Of a stretch of DNA of 64,000 bases, positions 6,467-34,790 are shown piece by piece. Position numbers and translations under genes: made by a program. The notes under the pieces are model-generated. The model was not told where the DNA came from and ran no database searches. It was given only the letters and a program-made list of their open reading frames with translations. Position 1 is the first letter of the stretch. The number at the start of each line of letters is the position of its first letter. The stretch is taken from the NCBI GenBank assembly GCA_029865605.1, contig JAOUGE010000005.1:338-64337 (forward strand), given 5' to 3'. The DNA comes from Candidatus Berkelbacteria bacterium (GTDB lineage: Bacteria > Patescibacteriota > UBA1384 > DTJR01).

Positions 6467-6609
6467 TGGTAGCGGGGGTGGGATTTGGTCACAAGTCGGC
6501 GCGCATATTTTTCTTAAAGAGTGTGCCGCTCGCGACCCCGCCTCATCCCGCCGTGGCGGGACTCCGGCCTTCAAATCCCATCGCTCCCAATTCTCGGCTT
6601 ACGCCGATC
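6467..6609 (-). repeat. tRNA-3'-flank structured element, copy A (variant without the AGCA loop)
   Basis: Minus strand reads: after the tRNA-fMet CCA, hairpin TCGGC-GTAA-GCCGA; antisense TGGGAGCGA-TGGGATTTGAA; GGCCGGAG; hairpin TCCCGC-CACG-GCGGGA; GAGGCGGGGTCG; long imperfect hairpin; GTGAC. It ends in an exact 21-nt repeat of tRNA C56-CCA (6467-6487 = 6610-6630). Confidence 0.8.
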
Positions 6610-6686
<77 letters not shown>

Positions 6687-7464: not shown

Positions 7465-7541
7465 GGCAACGTAGCTCAGTTGGTTAGAGCGAGGGAATCA
7501 TAACCCCTAGGTCACAGGTTCGAATCCTGTCGTTGCCACCA
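7465..7541 (+). tRNA. tRNA with anticodon CAU (elongator Met or Ile2)
   Basis: GGCAACG/CGTTGCC acceptor stem, anticodon loop ATCATAA, T-arm ACAGG-TTCGAAT-CCTGT, encoded CCA. Confidence 0.85.
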
Positions 7542-7663
7542 GGTTGTTTTTTGGTGAAACGGCGGATTCGAAGGCCGCAGCGAGCGAAGGCGAGCGAGGC
7601 GGGGTCGATTGCCGCGCCAGCAGGTGCGGACAAGTGACCGAATCCTGTCGTTGCCACCAGGTT
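7542..7663 (+). repeat. tRNA-3'-flank structured element, copy B
   Basis: TGGTG-AAACGGC-GGATTCGAA is antisense of the CCA end and T-loop. This is followed by GGCCGCA, hairpin GCGAGC-GAAG-GCGAGC, GAGGCGGGGTCG, hairpin CCGCGCC-AGCA-GGTGCGG and GTGAC. It ends in a 25-nt exact repeat (7639-7663 = 7521-7545). Confidence 0.85.
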
Positions 7664-23141: not shown

Positions 23142-23215
23142 TGGAGGCATCGCCGGGATTTGCACCCGGGTAAACGGTTTTGCAGACCGTTGCCTGACTA
23201 CTCGGCCACGATGCC
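23142..23215 (-). tRNA. tRNA-Cys (GCA)
   Basis: Minus strand reads GGCATCG TG GCCGAGTAGTCAGGC A ACGGT CTGCAAA ACCGT TTAC CCGGG TGCAAAT CCCGG CGATGCC T CCA. Confidence 0.85.
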
Positions 23216-23825: not shown

Positions 23826-23900
23826 GCGGGTGTCGTATAGCGGTTATTACACGTGCTTGCCAAGCACGAGAGGGCGGTTCAATTCCGCTCACCCGCTCCA
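23826..23900 (+). tRNA. tRNA-Gly (GCC)
   Basis: GCGGGTG/CACCCGC acceptor stem, anticodon arm CGTGC-TTGCCAA-GCACG, T-arm GGCGG-TTCAATT-CCGCT, encoded CCA. Confidence 0.9.
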
Positions 23901-24039
23901 ACGAGATGGCCTTTAGGCCATTTTTCGTTGGAGCACCCTGCCGAGAATTGAAGGCCGGACCCCGCCACGGCGGGGGAGGCGGGGTCGCGAAATTTACCAG
24001 CAGGTAAATATTTGTGACCAATTCCGCTCACCCGCTCCA
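23901..24039 (+). repeat. tRNA-3'-flank structured element, copy C
   Basis: CGTTGGAGC is antisense of ...GCTCCAACG. It is followed by a linker, then GAATTGAA (antisense of the T-loop), GGCCGGA, hairpin CCCCGC-CACG-GCGGGG, GAGGCGGGGTCG, hairpin AAATTTACC-AGCA-GGTAAATATTT and GTGAC. It ends in a 21-nt exact repeat (24019-24039 = 23880-23900). Confidence 0.85.
23906..23925 (+). terminator. Terminator-like hairpin between tRNA-Gly and the antisense arm of element C
   Basis: ATGGCC-TTTA-GGCCAT followed by TTTTT. Confidence 0.6.
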
Positions 24040-28178: not shown

Positions 28179-28282
28179 ATTCTGTATCTTGTATTTTGTA
28201 TCAGGTATCTAGTATTGAACGGTGAATACATGATACATGCTACTTGATACATGATACTTTTTCTTGTACAATCTAACCTGAT

Positions 28283-28368
28283 GCCGAGGTGGTGGAATTG
28301 GTATACACGATAGCTTGAGGAGCTATGCTCGCAAGAGCGTGCAGGTTCGAGTCCTGTCCTCGGCACCA
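28283..28368 (+). tRNA. tRNA-Leu (GAG), class II
   Basis: GCCGAGG/CCTCGGC acceptor stem, anticodon loop CTTGAGGAG, variable arm, T-arm GCAGG-TTCGAGT-CCTGT, encoded CCA. Confidence 0.9.
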
Positions 28369-28523
28369 AGCAGAACTGCCCTTGTGGCAGTTTTTTGCTT
28401 GGTGCCCCGTGGACTCGAAGGCCGGACCTCGCCACGGCGGGGGTTCGAGGGGTGGCACCTGAGAAGGGTCGCGAGGCCCGCCAGCAGGCGGGAACTTGTG
28501 ACCGAGTCCTGTCCTCGGCACCA
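28369..28523 (+). repeat. tRNA-3'-flank structured element, copy D
   Basis: TGCTTGGTGCC-CCGT-GGACTCGAA is antisense of the CCA end and T-loop. It is followed by GGCCGGA, hairpin CCTCGC-CACG-GCGGGG, an extra segment TTCGAGGGGTGGCACC, GAGAAGGGTCG, hairpin CCCGCC-AGCA-GGCGGG and GTGAC. It ends in a 21-nt exact repeat (28503-28523 = 28348-28368). Confidence 0.85.
28375..28396 (+). terminator. Terminator-like hairpin between tRNA-Leu(GAG) and the antisense arm of element D
   Basis: ACTGCC-CTTG-TGGCAGT followed by TTTTTT. Confidence 0.65.
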
Positions 28524-28530
28524 CAAAGAT

Positions 28531-28550
28531 CCCGCTTTAGCGGGGTTTTT
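28531..28550 (+). terminator. Intrinsic terminator after element D
   Basis: CCCGC-TTTA-GCGGG followed by GTTTTT. Confidence 0.7.
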
Positions 28551-28616
28551 CTATGTATTAGGGTTGAAAAATTTTGTGAAAAAAGCTAAAATTACTCCAG
28601 AAGGTCGATAACTTAA

Positions 28617-28868
28617 ATGGAGATGAATATGGCAGACACAAAAATTGGTGTGATAACACACTACTTTGACAAAATTGGGGTTGGGATCATCAAGCTTGAG
28701 GCGCCGCTAAAGAAAGGCGAAACAATTAAGATTGGCGAGGTGGAACAAGTAGTTGATTCAATGCAGGTTGACCATAAGGATATTGATGAAGGCCAACCGG
28801 GTCAGGAAGTCGGCGTCAAAGTCAGCGCCAAGGTTCGCGAAGGCGAGGAAGTTTATAAGGTAGAGTAG
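28617..28868 (+). CDS. Small beta-barrel protein resembling translation-factor domain II
   Basis: 83 aa: IGVITHYFDKIGVGIIKLEAPLKKGETIKIG...GQEVGVKV. Three in-frame ATGs at the start leave the start ambiguous. Confidence 0.5.
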   Translation: MEMNMADTKIGVITHYFDKIGVGIIKLEAPLKKGETIKIGEVEQVVDSMQVDHKDIDEGQPGQEVGVKVSAKVREGEEVYKVE

Positions 28869-28930
28869 GGGGCGGCTAGCTTGGGCTAGAAGCTCATCGG
28901 CCTTTGGCTGACAGCGGGATTTTTAGATGT

Positions 28931-29005
28931 GGGCGGTTAGCTCAACGGTAGAGCATTTGGTTTACATCCAAGGGGTTAAAGGTTCGAATCCTTTACCGCC
29001 CACCA
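28931..29005 (+). tRNA. tRNA-Val (UAC)
   Basis: GGGCGGT/ACCGCCC acceptor stem, anticodon loop TTTACAT, T-arm AAAGG-TTCGAAT-CCTTT, encoded CCA. No flank element; tRNA-Phe follows 25 nt later. Confidence 0.9.
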
Positions 29006-29030
29006 TCGGCTTGCATGAATGGTTTGAAAC

Positions 29031-29106
29031 GCCGGGGTAGCTCAGTGGTTAGAGCACTGGTCTGAAAAACCAGGTGTCGACAGTTCGATTCTGTCCCCCG
29101 GCACCA
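29031..29106 (+). tRNA. tRNA-Phe (GAA)
   Basis: GCCGGGG/CCCCGGC acceptor stem, anticodon arm CTGGT-CTGAAAA-ACCAG, T-arm GACAG-TTCGATT-CTGTC, encoded CCA. Confidence 0.9.
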
Positions 29107-29240
29107 GGCGGAATTGCGAAGCAATTATTTGACTGGTGCGGCGAACCGAGAATCGAAGGCCGGAGCGCGACGGCGCGAGGCGGGGTCGAGCGCAAAATCA
29201 GCAGATTTTGACGGGTGACCGATTCTGTCCCCCGGCACCA
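29107..29240 (+). repeat. tRNA-3'-flank structured element, copy E
   Basis: Hairpin AATTGC-GAA-GCAATT, then CTGGTGC-GGCGAACCG-AGAATCGAA (antisense), GGCCGGA, hairpin GCGC-GACG-GCGC, GAGGCGGGGTCG, hairpin CAAAATC-AGCA-GATTTTG and GTGAC. It ends in a 21-nt exact repeat (29220-29240 = 29086-29106). Confidence 0.85.
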
Positions 29241-29443
29241 TCGCGTATGTCCTCATCTGCCAGAAAAGGTAGATGTGGAGACGCGATTTGACGGGGGCGG
29301 CAGGTCGATAACCTGAGAACCTGCCGACAAGAATCGAAACGCGCAGGCTCGACGGAGCCGAGCGGGGGTCGCGAGGCCCGCCAGCAGGCGGGAACTTGTG
29401 ACCGATTTCCTGCCTGCCGGCAGGCAGGTGTCCCTCTGCACCA
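29241..29443 (+). repeat. tRNA-3'-flank structured element, copy F (tandem, diverged, with a palindrome insert)
   Basis: Second unit directly after copy E: AGAATCGAA, hairpin GGCTC-GACG-GAGCC and GAGCGGGGGTCG. Hairpin 2 is identical to that of copy D. After GTGAC comes a Phe-like 3' end, GATT[CCTGCCTGCCGGCAGGCAGG palindrome]TGTCCCTCTGCACCA. Confidence 0.75.
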
Positions 29444-29469
29444 CTTACCCCGCATGAGCGGGGTTCAAT

Positions 29470-29943
29470 GTGAAATTAAAAATGCAAAACGTCACGGCTT
29501 TTTTGGGTGAAATATTCAGCTTTTTCAAAGAAAAAGTTTTTGATTTTGAGAAGTTTTTTAGTTGGGGTTATCTTAATGCGTCAGCGTCCACAATTCTCCG
29601 GTATTGGATAGTTTACGTCGTGATTTTTGCTCTTTTAATAGTGGTCGGACTATTTATTCAGTTTTATTTTGGGCGCAAAACCCTGCCGAAATTCAGAAAA
29701 AAATTTTATAAGCGTTTGGGCGACTTTCTCGTTTACCCGCCGCTTGTTTATCTTTTTCTTATCACTGTAAGAAGGGCCGGGCTGGAAGGCTTGAATAAGA
29801 GGATTCTTCCAGTTTCTCTTGCGCTTATATGGTTGATTTGGCTGGGCTTTCTGGTATACTACAGAATAGCCGTTGTTTCAAAACTCCAAAAGATGTATTT
29901 GGAACAGCGGAGAAAGGAAAAATATATAAGAAATGGTAGTTAA
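29470..29943 (+). CDS. Hypothetical membrane protein
   Basis: 157-aa ORF with 3-4 TM helices. Confidence 0.45.
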   Translation: MKLKMQNVTAFLGEIFSFFKEKVFDFEKFFSWGYLNASASTILRYWIVYVVIFALLIVVGLFIQFYFGRKTLPKFRKKFYKRLGDFLVYPPLVYLFLITVRRAGLEGLNKRILPVSLALIWLIWLGFLVYYRIAVVSKLQKMYLEQRRKEKYIRNGS

Positions 29944-34577: not shown

Positions 34578-34663
34578 GGGCGAGTGGTGGAATGGTATAC
34601 ACGTTGGACTTAAAATCCAATGGTCGCAAGACCATGTGGGTTCGAATCCCACCTCGCCCACCA
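34578..34663 (+). tRNA. tRNA-Leu (UAA), class II
   Basis: GGGCGAG/CTCGCCC acceptor stem, anticodon loop CTTAAAA, variable arm, T-arm GTGGG-TTCGAAT-CCCAC, encoded CCA. Confidence 0.9.
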
Positions 34664-34790
34664 GGTTGTTTTTTGGTGAACAGGGGGGATTCGAAAGCCG
34701 GACCAGCCCAGGGCTGGGAGACGGGGTCGCACAAAAATTCAGCAGAATTTTATGAGTGACCGAATCCCACCTCGCCCACCAGGTTGTTTT
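34664..34790 (+). repeat. tRNA-3'-flank structured element, copy G
   Basis: TGGTG-AACAGGG-GGGATTCGAA (antisense), then AGCCGGA, hairpin CCAGCC-CAG-GGCTGG, GAGACGGGGTCG, hairpin AAAATTC-AGCA-GAATTTT and GTGAC. It ends in a 30-nt exact repeat (34761-34790 = 34643-34672). Confidence 0.85.

Follow-up and report, generated by a model that had tools for sequence, protein, structure and literature searches.

A structured element with sense and antisense copies of the adjacent tRNA 3′ end recurs across Patescibacteria

The tRNA-Leu(GAG) locus and its sister copies

The stretch analysed here, which we call the window, comprises 64,000 nucleotides of a Candidatus Berkelbacteria contig (JAOUGE010000005.1, assembly GCA_029865605.1), and all positions are window coordinates. 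ARAGORN and Rfam identify nine tRNA genes in these 64 kb, six of which carry behind them a structured element of 118–155 nucleotides (nt) that contains no open reading frame (ORF). At each of the six loci an exact 21-nt duplicate of the tRNA's own C56–A76 segment begins 97–134 nt past the CCA and is always preceded by GTGAC.

Copy D, behind tRNA-Leu(GAG), illustrates the arrangement, and all of its parts lie on the forward strand. A sequence scan places a promoter-like site (TTGATA-17-TACAAT, 28244–28272), the sole promoter-like match upstream of the element, before the tRNA gene (28283–28368; ARAGORN, Rfam and repeat search). The gene encodes its CCA; T54–C62 occupy 28346–28354 and C56–A76, the first repeat copy (DR1), 28348–28368. 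On inspection the trailer (28369–28396) consists of AGCA, the hairpin GAACTGCC-CTTGT-GGCAGTT (28373–28392) and a T-run. Hairpin and T-run have the form of an intrinsic terminator for tRNA-Leu(GAG) and make up the tip of a long hairpin, H0; the promoter and terminator scan did not list this hairpin, which was assigned from the sequence. An inverted-repeat search identified a distal antisense arm, TGCTTGGTGCC (28396–28406), the reverse complement of GGCACCA together with AGCA of the trailer (28362–28372), and, after CCGT, a proximal antisense arm, GGACTCGAA (28411–28419), the reverse complement of T54–C62. The proximal arm, also recovered by alignment and folding, is the 5′ strand of a basal helix, termed P1 when the partner is the downstream repeat and H0 when it is the real T-loop. 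A G+C-rich segment of 83 nt separates this arm from the repeat. Its 5′ part (28420–28467), delimited by copy alignment and a covariance model, comprises a 3-bp helix of the GCC/GGC type, an internal loop with tandem G.A, hairpin P2 and a linker rich in G. Alignment and folding define the remainder (28468–28502) as hairpin P3, with 14 bp, a CAGCAG loop and a bulged A, ending in GTGAC exactly at the junction. The second repeat copy (DR2, 28503–28523; repeat search and folding) is an exact C56–A76 copy whose first 7 nt form the 3′ strand of P1, and the terminator scan calls an intrinsic terminator after it (28525–28550). An earlier sequence-only reading had described copy D as tRNA, AGCA, hairpin, antisense arms around CCGT and repeat, and the coordinates confirm that order.

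Copy D also has an extra insertion between P2 and P3 (around 28440–28465) carrying GGTTCGAG, which is also present at 28344, and GGCACC. Together these two segments amount to a shortened sense version of the T-loop and acceptor end of the tRNA, which could pair with the bipartite antisense arm of copy D itself.

Repeat search and the covariance model located six further copies, all on the forward strand except A. Copy A (6467–6609, reverse strand) lies behind tRNA-Met (6610–6686, reverse strand), with its core at 6487–6580, DR2 at 6467–6487 and an enlarged P3 loop that lacks CAGCAG. Copy B (7542–7659; core 7562–7639, DR2 7639–7659) follows a second tRNA-Met (7465–7541), with no terminator hairpin in the interval. 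Copy C (23901–24039; core 23942–24019, DR2 24019–24039) follows tRNA-Gly(GCC) (23826–23900). Copy E (29107–29240; core 29147–29220, DR2 29220–29240) follows tRNA-Phe (29031–29106). Copy G (34664–34781; core 34685–34761, DR2 34761–34781) follows tRNA-Leu(TAA) (34578–34663), and its duplication runs 9 nt beyond the CCA, 30 nt in all. Distal to E at the tRNA-Phe locus lies copy F (29241–29443; core 29328–29403), followed by a degenerate tRNA-Phe 3′ copy (CGATT..TGTCCCTCTGCACCA); F is an older copy and the seventh in the window. The degenerate copy (29403–29443) is split by a perfect palindrome, CCTGCCTGCCGGCAGGCAGG, and has diverged in its TGTCCCTCTGCACCA part.

The covariance model of the core gave exactly seven matches in the 64 kb (E values 6e-19 to 4e-10), the next match having E=0.05. 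Five of the seven copies share a fixed spacing of GGGGTCG (AGGGTCG in D), 10 nt, CAGCAG, 10 nt and GTGAC. The antisense arms that had been quoted for copies A, B, C, E and G are all present. Copies D and F contain an identical 37-nt P3 segment, yet their arms fit tRNA-Leu and tRNA-Phe, respectively.

A covarying three-helix core shared across Patescibacteria

Alignment of the seven window copies, and then of 65 distinct copies, defined the conserved unit as a 75-nt core with three helices, in the order 9-nt arm, one purine, 3-bp helix, internal loop, hairpin P2, GGG linker and hairpin P3. The 3-bp helix occurs as GCC/GGC, GAC/GTC, GGC/GCC, GTC/GAC, AGC/GCT and ACC/GGT. The internal loop sets G-GA opposite GA as a tandem G.A, variants of which are also found in the arm and P2, and the bulged A of the 14-bp P3 lies 8 nt from the end of that hairpin, whose 3′ strand stops at the junction. 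The 21 core base pairs are paired in 93% of cases, with a covariation score of 0.60 as against 0.16 in shuffles (0 of 500 reached 0.60) and at most 0.14 when the partners are slid. G.T pairs outnumber A.C combinations 36 to 6 in the core helices, indicating that the fold forms on the tRNA-sense strand. The core therefore folds as a three-helix structure on that strand.

The seed pattern enforced GGGTCG, CAGCAG and GTGACC, so the invariance of these motifs is in part an ascertainment effect. In lower-scoring copies the terminal pairs of P3 covary, and GTGAC with them, giving GTAGC, GTGAA or CTGGC; the proposal that GTGAC always precedes the repeat thus holds in the window and gives way elsewhere to a covarying P3 base. 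A second core subfamily (L020, L021, L045, L051, L076, L084, L101, L111 and L112; labels of this form denote loci of other genomes from the core-pattern scan) has longer P2 and P3 hairpins with swapped loops, CAGCAG or CAGAAG in P2 and a GACGG-type loop in P3, a swap that hints at loop–loop or dimeric recognition. Another variant (L002, L005, L021, L026, L028, L048, L064 and L065) carries an optional mini-hairpin, GAAA-GYGG-UAAU/UACU-CCRC, with a covarying stem after GTGACC, that is, between C56 and R57.

The core-pattern scan, run on one genome per species, returned at least 120 loci, of which about 98 are real; counts outside the window rest on the matches listed. The real loci (at least 98, with about 100 or more copies) fall nearly all within Patescibacteria, in Paceibacteria/Parcubacteria groups, Saccharibacteria, Woesebacteria, WWE3 and Berkelbacteria. 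The remaining listed matches were dismissed as chance, being high in GC and lacking the rest of the core. Applied to the 98 listed loci, covariance model R1 found 127 copies, with two to four at several loci. A same-strand tRNA ends less than 250 nt upstream of 67 of 98 copies, and nearly all tRNA species are represented.

The family corresponds to no catalogued RNA in the collections searched. With Rfam 15, only tRNAs reach a gathering score in the whole window. At E≤10 in 28250–29500, the non-tRNA matches all fall far below their gathering scores; they comprise Plastid-ycf2 and YrlA on the tRNA genes themselves, miRNA models on the palindrome after copy F and faint, low-scoring matches at other positions. 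Known self-cleaving ribozymes, group II domains V–VI, T-box and Y RNA likewise came nowhere near a gathering threshold, and the published literature we searched yielded no description of the element. The tRNA introns of Patescibacteria reported in one paper are of group I, at position 35/36 (PMC13011429). In IMG/VR the core pattern recovered no real copy, only four high-GC chance matches, which indicates that, at the stringency of the pattern, the element is not phage-borne. A metagenome scan for empty copy D sites with a 25-mer from the tRNA-Leu T-arm and acceptor returned 12 unrelated loci and no close relative, and an exact-protein look-up of one window gene returned no record.

Pairing of the arm with the tRNA and with the repeat

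The sequence-only reading had proposed that a sense, antisense, sense order follows each tRNA's own sequence. This proved correct and general. In 36 tRNA-adjacent copies from other genomes, the T-loop arm matches its own tRNA at 7.0 of 9 positions, as against 6.0 with permuted tRNAs (permutation maximum 6.47), and the longest anti-acceptor complement measures 5.2 nt as against 3.7 nt (maximum 4.3). This agreement with their own tRNA exceeds what the conserved T-loop alone would provide. The distal arms of copies C and D also complement the unprocessed trailer (TCGT/ACGA and TGCT/AGCA, respectively).

In T-loop copies the repeat begins at C56, right behind GTT, and its identity ends at the end of the tRNA, after 21–22 nt where CCA is encoded and 18–20 nt where it is not. 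In the latter, the one or two extra matches are C74 and A75, which most such tRNA genes carry anyway. A fixed-length duplication or guide of about 20 nt was therefore rejected as a general rule. At about eight loci the duplication goes on into flanking DNA, as in copy G, L005 (29 nt) and L033 (more than 45 nt, terminator included), indicating a DNA-level event rather than a copy of the mature tRNA. At 5 of 28 loci, CCA ends the downstream copy and is missing from the gene copy. Among tRNA genes in the listed Patescibacteria loci in general, 125 of 188 lack CCA; most of these keep C74, usually followed by A (CAA, CAT, CAG, CAC), irrespective of the presence of an element.

Among 58 tRNA-adjacent copies, the arm forms all nine pairs with T54–C62 in 32. 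The downstream repeat is perfect in 33 and has at least six mismatches in 23, a set that also takes in 3′-end-type copies and copies with the mini-hairpin after GTGACC. T-loop-type copies with a decayed repeat keep its first 7–8 nt, the arm's partner, and their arm still fits the T-loop of the adjacent tRNA at all nine positions. L020 retains antisense that is nearly perfect over 21 nt next to a decayed repeat. At L114 the T-loop of a dead tRNA has drifted jointly with the arm, and the repeat no longer fits. Because arm pairing outlasts the repeat in these cases, the constrained feature is the arm-containing helix with either partner. The arm is required to lie in a helix that adjoins the core, and in T-loop copies its partner is T54–C62 of the real tRNA (H0) or the first 7 nt of the repeat (P1). 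The rest of the repeat and the antisense middle are free to decay, and the distal arm mostly extends the terminator hairpin.

These results qualify two structural arguments made from the window alone. The preservation of both antisense ends around a scrambled middle had been taken as evidence against random decay of an inverted duplication; the T-loop-proximal 9 nt are indeed constrained as the basal helix, but the near-perfect antisense of L020 makes bipartite arms look like the ends of a continuum. Two junctions had been called invariant in tRNA numbering, which stands for T-loop copies and fails for the family, which also uses other tRNA positions. A decoy logic is not required by the data, with the repeat decayed in 23 of 58 copies and only an upstream partner used by L114 and by a subfamily that brings its own basal hairpin (TTGAAATGC-GAATACGTGGA-GCATTTCAA) and whose arm pairs only with that upstream partner.

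Co-folding bears on the further suggestion that the arm can pair with either the real tRNA or the repeat, and both conformers are predicted. The element alone is predicted to fold into a three-way junction with a bipartite P1 at −66.7 kcal/mol, with a z-score of only −1.8, modest because the sequence is G+C-rich. In the minimum-free-energy (MFE) structure of tRNA plus element, both arms pair with the 3′ half of the real tRNA, forming H0 with the terminator of the trailer at its tip, and the 5′ acceptor strand of the tRNA pairs with the repeat. H0 encloses the tRNA 3′ end and terminator in its loop, and P1 closes a three-way junction stacked on P3. Both conformers would therefore be available in a read-through transcript.

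Such alternatives raise the prospect of a cis-acting RNA switch or quality-control device, in which the arm either invades the T-arm and acceptor of the tRNA (H0) or is sequestered by the repeat (P1), and a ligand, a protein or transcription kinetics chooses the conformer and thereby controls tRNA folding, 3′ processing or decay. Besides the two predicted conformers, the resemblance of the three-way junction, with its conserved linkers and loops, to riboswitch aptamers speaks for a switch, as do the deep conservation over Patescibacteria and the repeats that remain perfect. We nevertheless regard this explanation as possible but rather unlikely. Many copies lack one of the two partners, through decay of the repeat or, in the self-contained subfamily and L114, through exclusive use of the upstream partner; orthologous tRNAs of sister species manage without an element; a terminator-like hairpin often stands between tRNA and element; copies occur in uvrC and in pseudo-tRNAs; and no ligand or partner is known. 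The position is also not that of a riboswitch or T-box 5′ leader: the element lies 3′ of tRNAs, its own terminator follows, and the downstream genes are unrelated.

Other RNAs share single features with the element. Retroviral and long-terminal-repeat primer-binding sites and the T-box antiterminator bulge likewise contain a complement of the tRNA 3′ end including CCA. The complement in the element, however, reaches into the trailer and the T-loop and adjoins the tRNA gene itself, and we found no reverse transcriptase (RT) gene among window ORFs or at the listed loci and no regulated aminoacyl-tRNA synthetase gene downstream. Non-coding RNAs that arise from tRNA precursors include 3′ETS-leuZ in E. 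coli, and hepatitis delta virus (HDV)-like theta ribozymes lie downstream of phage tRNAs. Plant dicistronic genes for a tRNA and a small nucleolar RNA are processed by RNase Z, according to work cited in PMC12045711. All of these resemble the element in placing a structured RNA in the tRNA 3′ trailer, from which 3′ processing would free it, whereas none is known to have sense and antisense tRNA copies, recurrence behind most tRNAs or the behaviour of an insertion element.

Insertion sites, proposed mobility and origin

Copies in other genomes occupy further sites. In a 3′-end subfamily (L045, L063 and L119), located at the extreme 3′ end of tRNAs, the final bases of the tRNA and its trailer together form a short hairpin whose sequence recurs behind the core. 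The self-contained copy L084 lies within the D-loop of a tRNA-Ser, both halves of which are present. At L083, L099, L104 and L031, self-contained copies precede intact tRNAs; a fragment of a tRNA 5′ part and 7–21 nt of the next tRNA segment flank them, and an inverted copy of the tRNA 5′ end comes after. Like L084, these four are inserted in D-loops or between the D and anticodon arms. At L003 (3433–3506) a 93-nt copy, in frame and free of stops, lies in uvrC between DKCTPC and QQRYCRPCFNRQIGMCPGVC, the only copy inside an ORF among the 108 matches listed. This insert falls in a cysteine-rich region, and its removal gives back the canonical C-x9-PC spacing. The insertion points share G-K-T|C, read as GTT|C in T-loops, GGT|C in D-loops and TGT|C in uvrC. 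An intron, excision of which would restore uvrC and a tRNA-Ser, was considered and judged unlikely, as the uvrC insert is in frame and stop-free and terminators precede many copies.

A T-rich motif 5′ of the matching tRNA segment, with target-identical sequence directly behind a structured scaffold, recalls the guide RNAs of trans-encoded effectors (TnpB omega RNA, the homing CRISPR RNA of type V-K CRISPR-associated transposons, or bridge RNA), with the core as scaffold and the roughly 18–21 nt of sense sequence after it, the antisense arm, or both specifying a tRNA gene or tRNA for homing or regulation. L083 fits this idea, with exactly 21 nt of tRNA identity after the core and an end that the tRNA does not define, as does the fact that one RNA represents both target strands. 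We hold it to be improbable all the same: no effector gene was found near any listed copy or in the window, identity stops at the tRNA end and not at a fixed length, the other 5′-type copies match only 7–10 nt, the would-be guide has decayed in many copies, such a nuclease would cut the neighbouring intact tRNA gene, and Rfam gave no IS605-orfB or HEARO match. The wider likeness to the insertion sequence (IS) group IS200/IS605 and TnpB omega RNA includes hairpins at both ends (H0 and P3), oriented insertion after a short T-rich motif, a scaffold that abuts the target and, at L084 and L003, simple insertions free of duplication. In contrast to those systems, most copies of the element carry target duplications, the element ends at hairpin feet, its terminal nucleotides covary, and no TnpA or TnpB gene lies near the listed copies.

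Occupancy varies between relatives. Among 155 syntenic same-anticodon tRNA pairs between species, only one member is occupied in 70, both are filled in 31 and neither is in 54, figures that are approximate given the loose occupancy and synteny criteria. L020 and L109 share near-identical tRNA-Leu(CAA) and tRNA-Trp genes with homologous flanks, reciprocally filled and empty. Tandem or relic copies are common (E and F in the window; L005, L053, L101, L114 and L116 elsewhere). Different genomes carry identical P3 variants at different tRNAs, and a model of one element lineage per tRNA species was rejected on that ground. No candidate mobiliser emerged. ORFs upstream of orphan cores share no common family, ORF clustering over the 98 listed loci gave housekeeping families only, none in more than ten loci, and the 30 large window ORFs include no recombinase, reverse transcriptase or transposase; they are ordinary genes of the Patescibacteria type, among them type IV pilus components, FtsH, UvrD, KsgA, MiaA, AlaRS, SerRS, SecA, MreB and PBP2. 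A 531-aa serine recombinase encoded between tRNA-Arg and the core at L090 was rejected as mobiliser, since it is part of an independent element that lies nested at the CCA end and has the same left end at tRNA-Leu (L126 and L127).

Direct repeats of the tRNA 3′ end flank the insert (21 nt at six window loci, 18–30 nt elsewhere), and repeats that start in the T-loop are a hallmark of islands that integrate into tRNA genes (tDNA). The copies could accordingly be att scars, attL/attR duplicates of the tRNA 3′ end left by classical integrase islands after loss of their cargo, and in a few copies (L033, L028 and L090) 1–3 kb separates the tRNA from the core. This is the least probable of the explanations we weighed, and very unlikely. 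A covarying single-strand structure of 75 nt would be unexpected in a scar, no integrase lies in or near the listed elements, six different tRNAs are occupied within 64 kb, an antisense arm is present, and copies also sit in D-loops and an ORF. The sequence-only reading had named a known integrase att duplication as evidence that would count against it; the covarying core, the missing integrase and the antisense arm make a classical att scar an unlikely account. tDNA islands and prophages (the sublocation classes of Williams 2002; the Islander database, PMC4383910) are similar in that the tRNA is split in the T-loop or 3′ end and the gene regenerated, with a displaced 3′ fragment at the far end and the newest insertion nearest the tRNA body, as with copies E and F. 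They differ from the element, which is about 100 nt rather than kilobases long, lacks an integrase, has a strand-specific folded core and an antisense arm, and uses most tRNA species in one genome as well as D-loop and ORF sites. The double-stranded att site of an island, free of strand-specific folding, does not match the covariation and the excess of G.T over A.C found here.

Taken together, these observations describe a phylum-wide family with a covarying sense-strand core, an arm pairing with the local T-loop, a target duplication, gain and loss between relatives, and no linked protein. We favour, with a probability of about one half, a non-autonomous mobile element that is defined by its structure, homes to tRNA genes, restores the tRNA by target duplication and is probably transcribed as part of the pre-tRNA trailer. 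Of the hypotheses in the sequence-only reading, this corresponds to a non-autonomous T-loop-targeting element with locally templated sequence, the one best supported by the differences in occupancy, the tandem and decayed copies, the D-loop, 3′-end and uvrC sites and the lack of a linked protein. The other two, a cis-acting switch or decoy and a small RNA that pairs in trans with its cognate tRNA, stand as candidates that the analysis neither demonstrates nor refutes. The element would insert at G-K-T|C, chiefly at T-loop position 55/56, duplicating the target from C56 on so that the tRNA 3′ end upstream would stay intact and a displaced copy would lie downstream, and the arm would be kept complementary to the local T-loop sequence. 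The distal anti-acceptor arm may be the outer portion of an inverted duplication that surrounds and extends the terminator hairpin, with a middle that may decay. Survival only of those insertions that leave the tRNA intact would explain why the duplication always reaches at least as far as the end of the tRNA. The downstream repeat would serve as the arm's partner other than the tRNA, and would otherwise be dispensable and decay. Because the fold lies on the tRNA-sense strand, the element is most likely transcribed within the 3′ trailer of the pre-tRNA, to be freed by tRNA 3′ processing. Copies B, G and many loci elsewhere have spacers of 2–20 nt and no terminator between tRNA and element, and there the element has to belong to the pre-tRNA. 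For copy D, co-transcription is supported by the position of the sole promoter-like site, ahead of the tRNA. Candidate routes of insertion are template switching at the terminator palindrome, target-primed copying of the trailer RNA, and strand transfer of the HUH or ribozyme type.

Several points weigh against this reading. The search produced neither an enzyme that could mobilise the element nor terminal inverted repeats nor a target duplication of fixed length, and regeneration of the tRNA together with an inverted copy fits no known transposition chemistry. In P3, copies that share a locus resemble each other no more, and if anything less, than random pairs do (six pairs only), which argues against a recent burst, and the differences in occupancy could reflect loss only. 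All six window repeats are perfect over 21 nt, including the unpaired middle, which could mean selection rather than youth. That loops and linkers are conserved over deep lineages of Patescibacteria fits a functional RNA better than a selfish repeat, though this conservation is in part an effect of ascertainment.

Comparison with known miniature elements shows both likeness and difference. Bacterial non-autonomous repeats include miniature inverted-repeat transposable elements (MITEs), repetitive extragenic palindromes and their mosaics (REP/BIME) and the Rickettsia palindromic elements (RPEs), the last of which insert in frame in genes. Like these, the element is short, multi-copy, protein-less and structured, differs in presence between relatives and, rarely, inserts in frame (uvrC of L003). 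Unlike them, it has neither terminal inverted repeats nor a short fixed target-site duplication, is strongly specific for tRNA genes, duplicates its target in both orientations and has a phylum-wide core. Its two ends, arm/H0 and P3/GTGAC, are not inverted repeats of each other, and the duplication ranges from 18 to more than 45 nt or is absent. A parent IS with the same ends was found neither by the IMG/VR pattern scan nor among ORFs near the listed copies. On these comparisons we place the element provisionally among small non-autonomous elements that target tRNA genes, with a real chance of something more unusual at the RNA level.

One such form would be a small catalytic RNA, a self-cleaving or self-ligating ribozyme, or an RT-copied retro-element, with P1 as substrate helix, P3|C56 as reactive site and the H0 and P1 types as circular permutations. 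The geometry is suggestive: the same three helices occur with the arm partner 5′ (H0) or 3′ (P1), permuted with the break exactly at GTGAC|C; no nucleotide separates P3 from P1 at the junction; and P3 has its bulged A 8 nt from the end. The lack of an associated protein and the loci with CCA on the repeat only also agree with it. Against it, no known Rfam ribozyme is similar at E≤10; the arms of D and C complement unprocessed trailer, so that this part at least was templated by DNA or pre-tRNA; and the duplications that take in flanking DNA and terminators point to events at the DNA level. We therefore think a catalytic or reverse-copied origin unlikely, if marginally less so than a guide RNA. 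Hand comparison with hammerhead, HDV, k-turn or box C/D, integron attC and the IS91 target (GTTC) found each to fail a defining feature. A broader proposition, that this is a new mobile or catalytic module at the RNA level that recognises tRNA by T-loop pairing, ranks with the cis-acting switch as a minority option. It would either insert itself at 55/56 by a ribozyme or RT-mediated copying, regenerating the tRNA, or have been domesticated as a phylum-wide, tRNA-linked RNA that gates how tRNAs are folded and processed, in organisms whose RNA-processing machinery is minimal.

Although the genomes of Patescibacteria measure about 1 Mb, two thirds of the tRNA genes in these 64 kb carry a structured passenger of about 100 nt whose core recurs across several major lineages. 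If it is a mobile element, it would be the first bacterial tRNA-targeting miniature element that rebuilds its essential target, and movement with no linked enzyme, leaving direct and inverted target copies, would suggest an insertion chemistry not yet described. As a functional RNA, it would rank among the most abundant unannotated RNA classes of a major bacterial radiation. Either way, it confounds the annotation of tRNA ends, terminators and genomic islands, since island finders would call att scars, and its compact fold, supported by covariation, lends itself to structural and biochemical study.

Some further features of these loci stand apart from the family proper. The large-serine-recombinase element, about 2.7 kb long, lies right after the CCA at L090 (tRNA-Arg) and at L126 and L127 (tRNA-Leu), with the common left end GGAAATGTCAAATTTTGGGAGTT.GCGCCGCCTGCGGCGGCGAC..., and at L090 it is nested within one structured element. 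At L029 the repeat after the core fits a tRNA-Arg 1.08 kb upstream, with other tRNA genes between, and the arm fits the tRNA directly next to it, a combination that suggests either a rearrangement or the carriage of tRNA genes as cargo. L136 (about 330–560) has a tRNA-Val and, some 100 nt beyond it, a 33-nt second copy of the T-arm and 3′ end of that tRNA (GGGTCCAGGGTTCGAATCCTTGTGCGCCCACAA) with no structured core, and may represent a different small tDNA insertion or an att scar. In the window, tRNA-Cys (23142–23215, reverse strand), one of the three tRNAs with no element, has an odd T-loop, GGTGCAAATCC, with G at the expected U55. Directly upstream of tRNA-Leu(GAG), a tandem 14-nt repeat (TACATGATACATGC / TACTTGATACATGA, 28227–28254) overlaps the promoter-like site.

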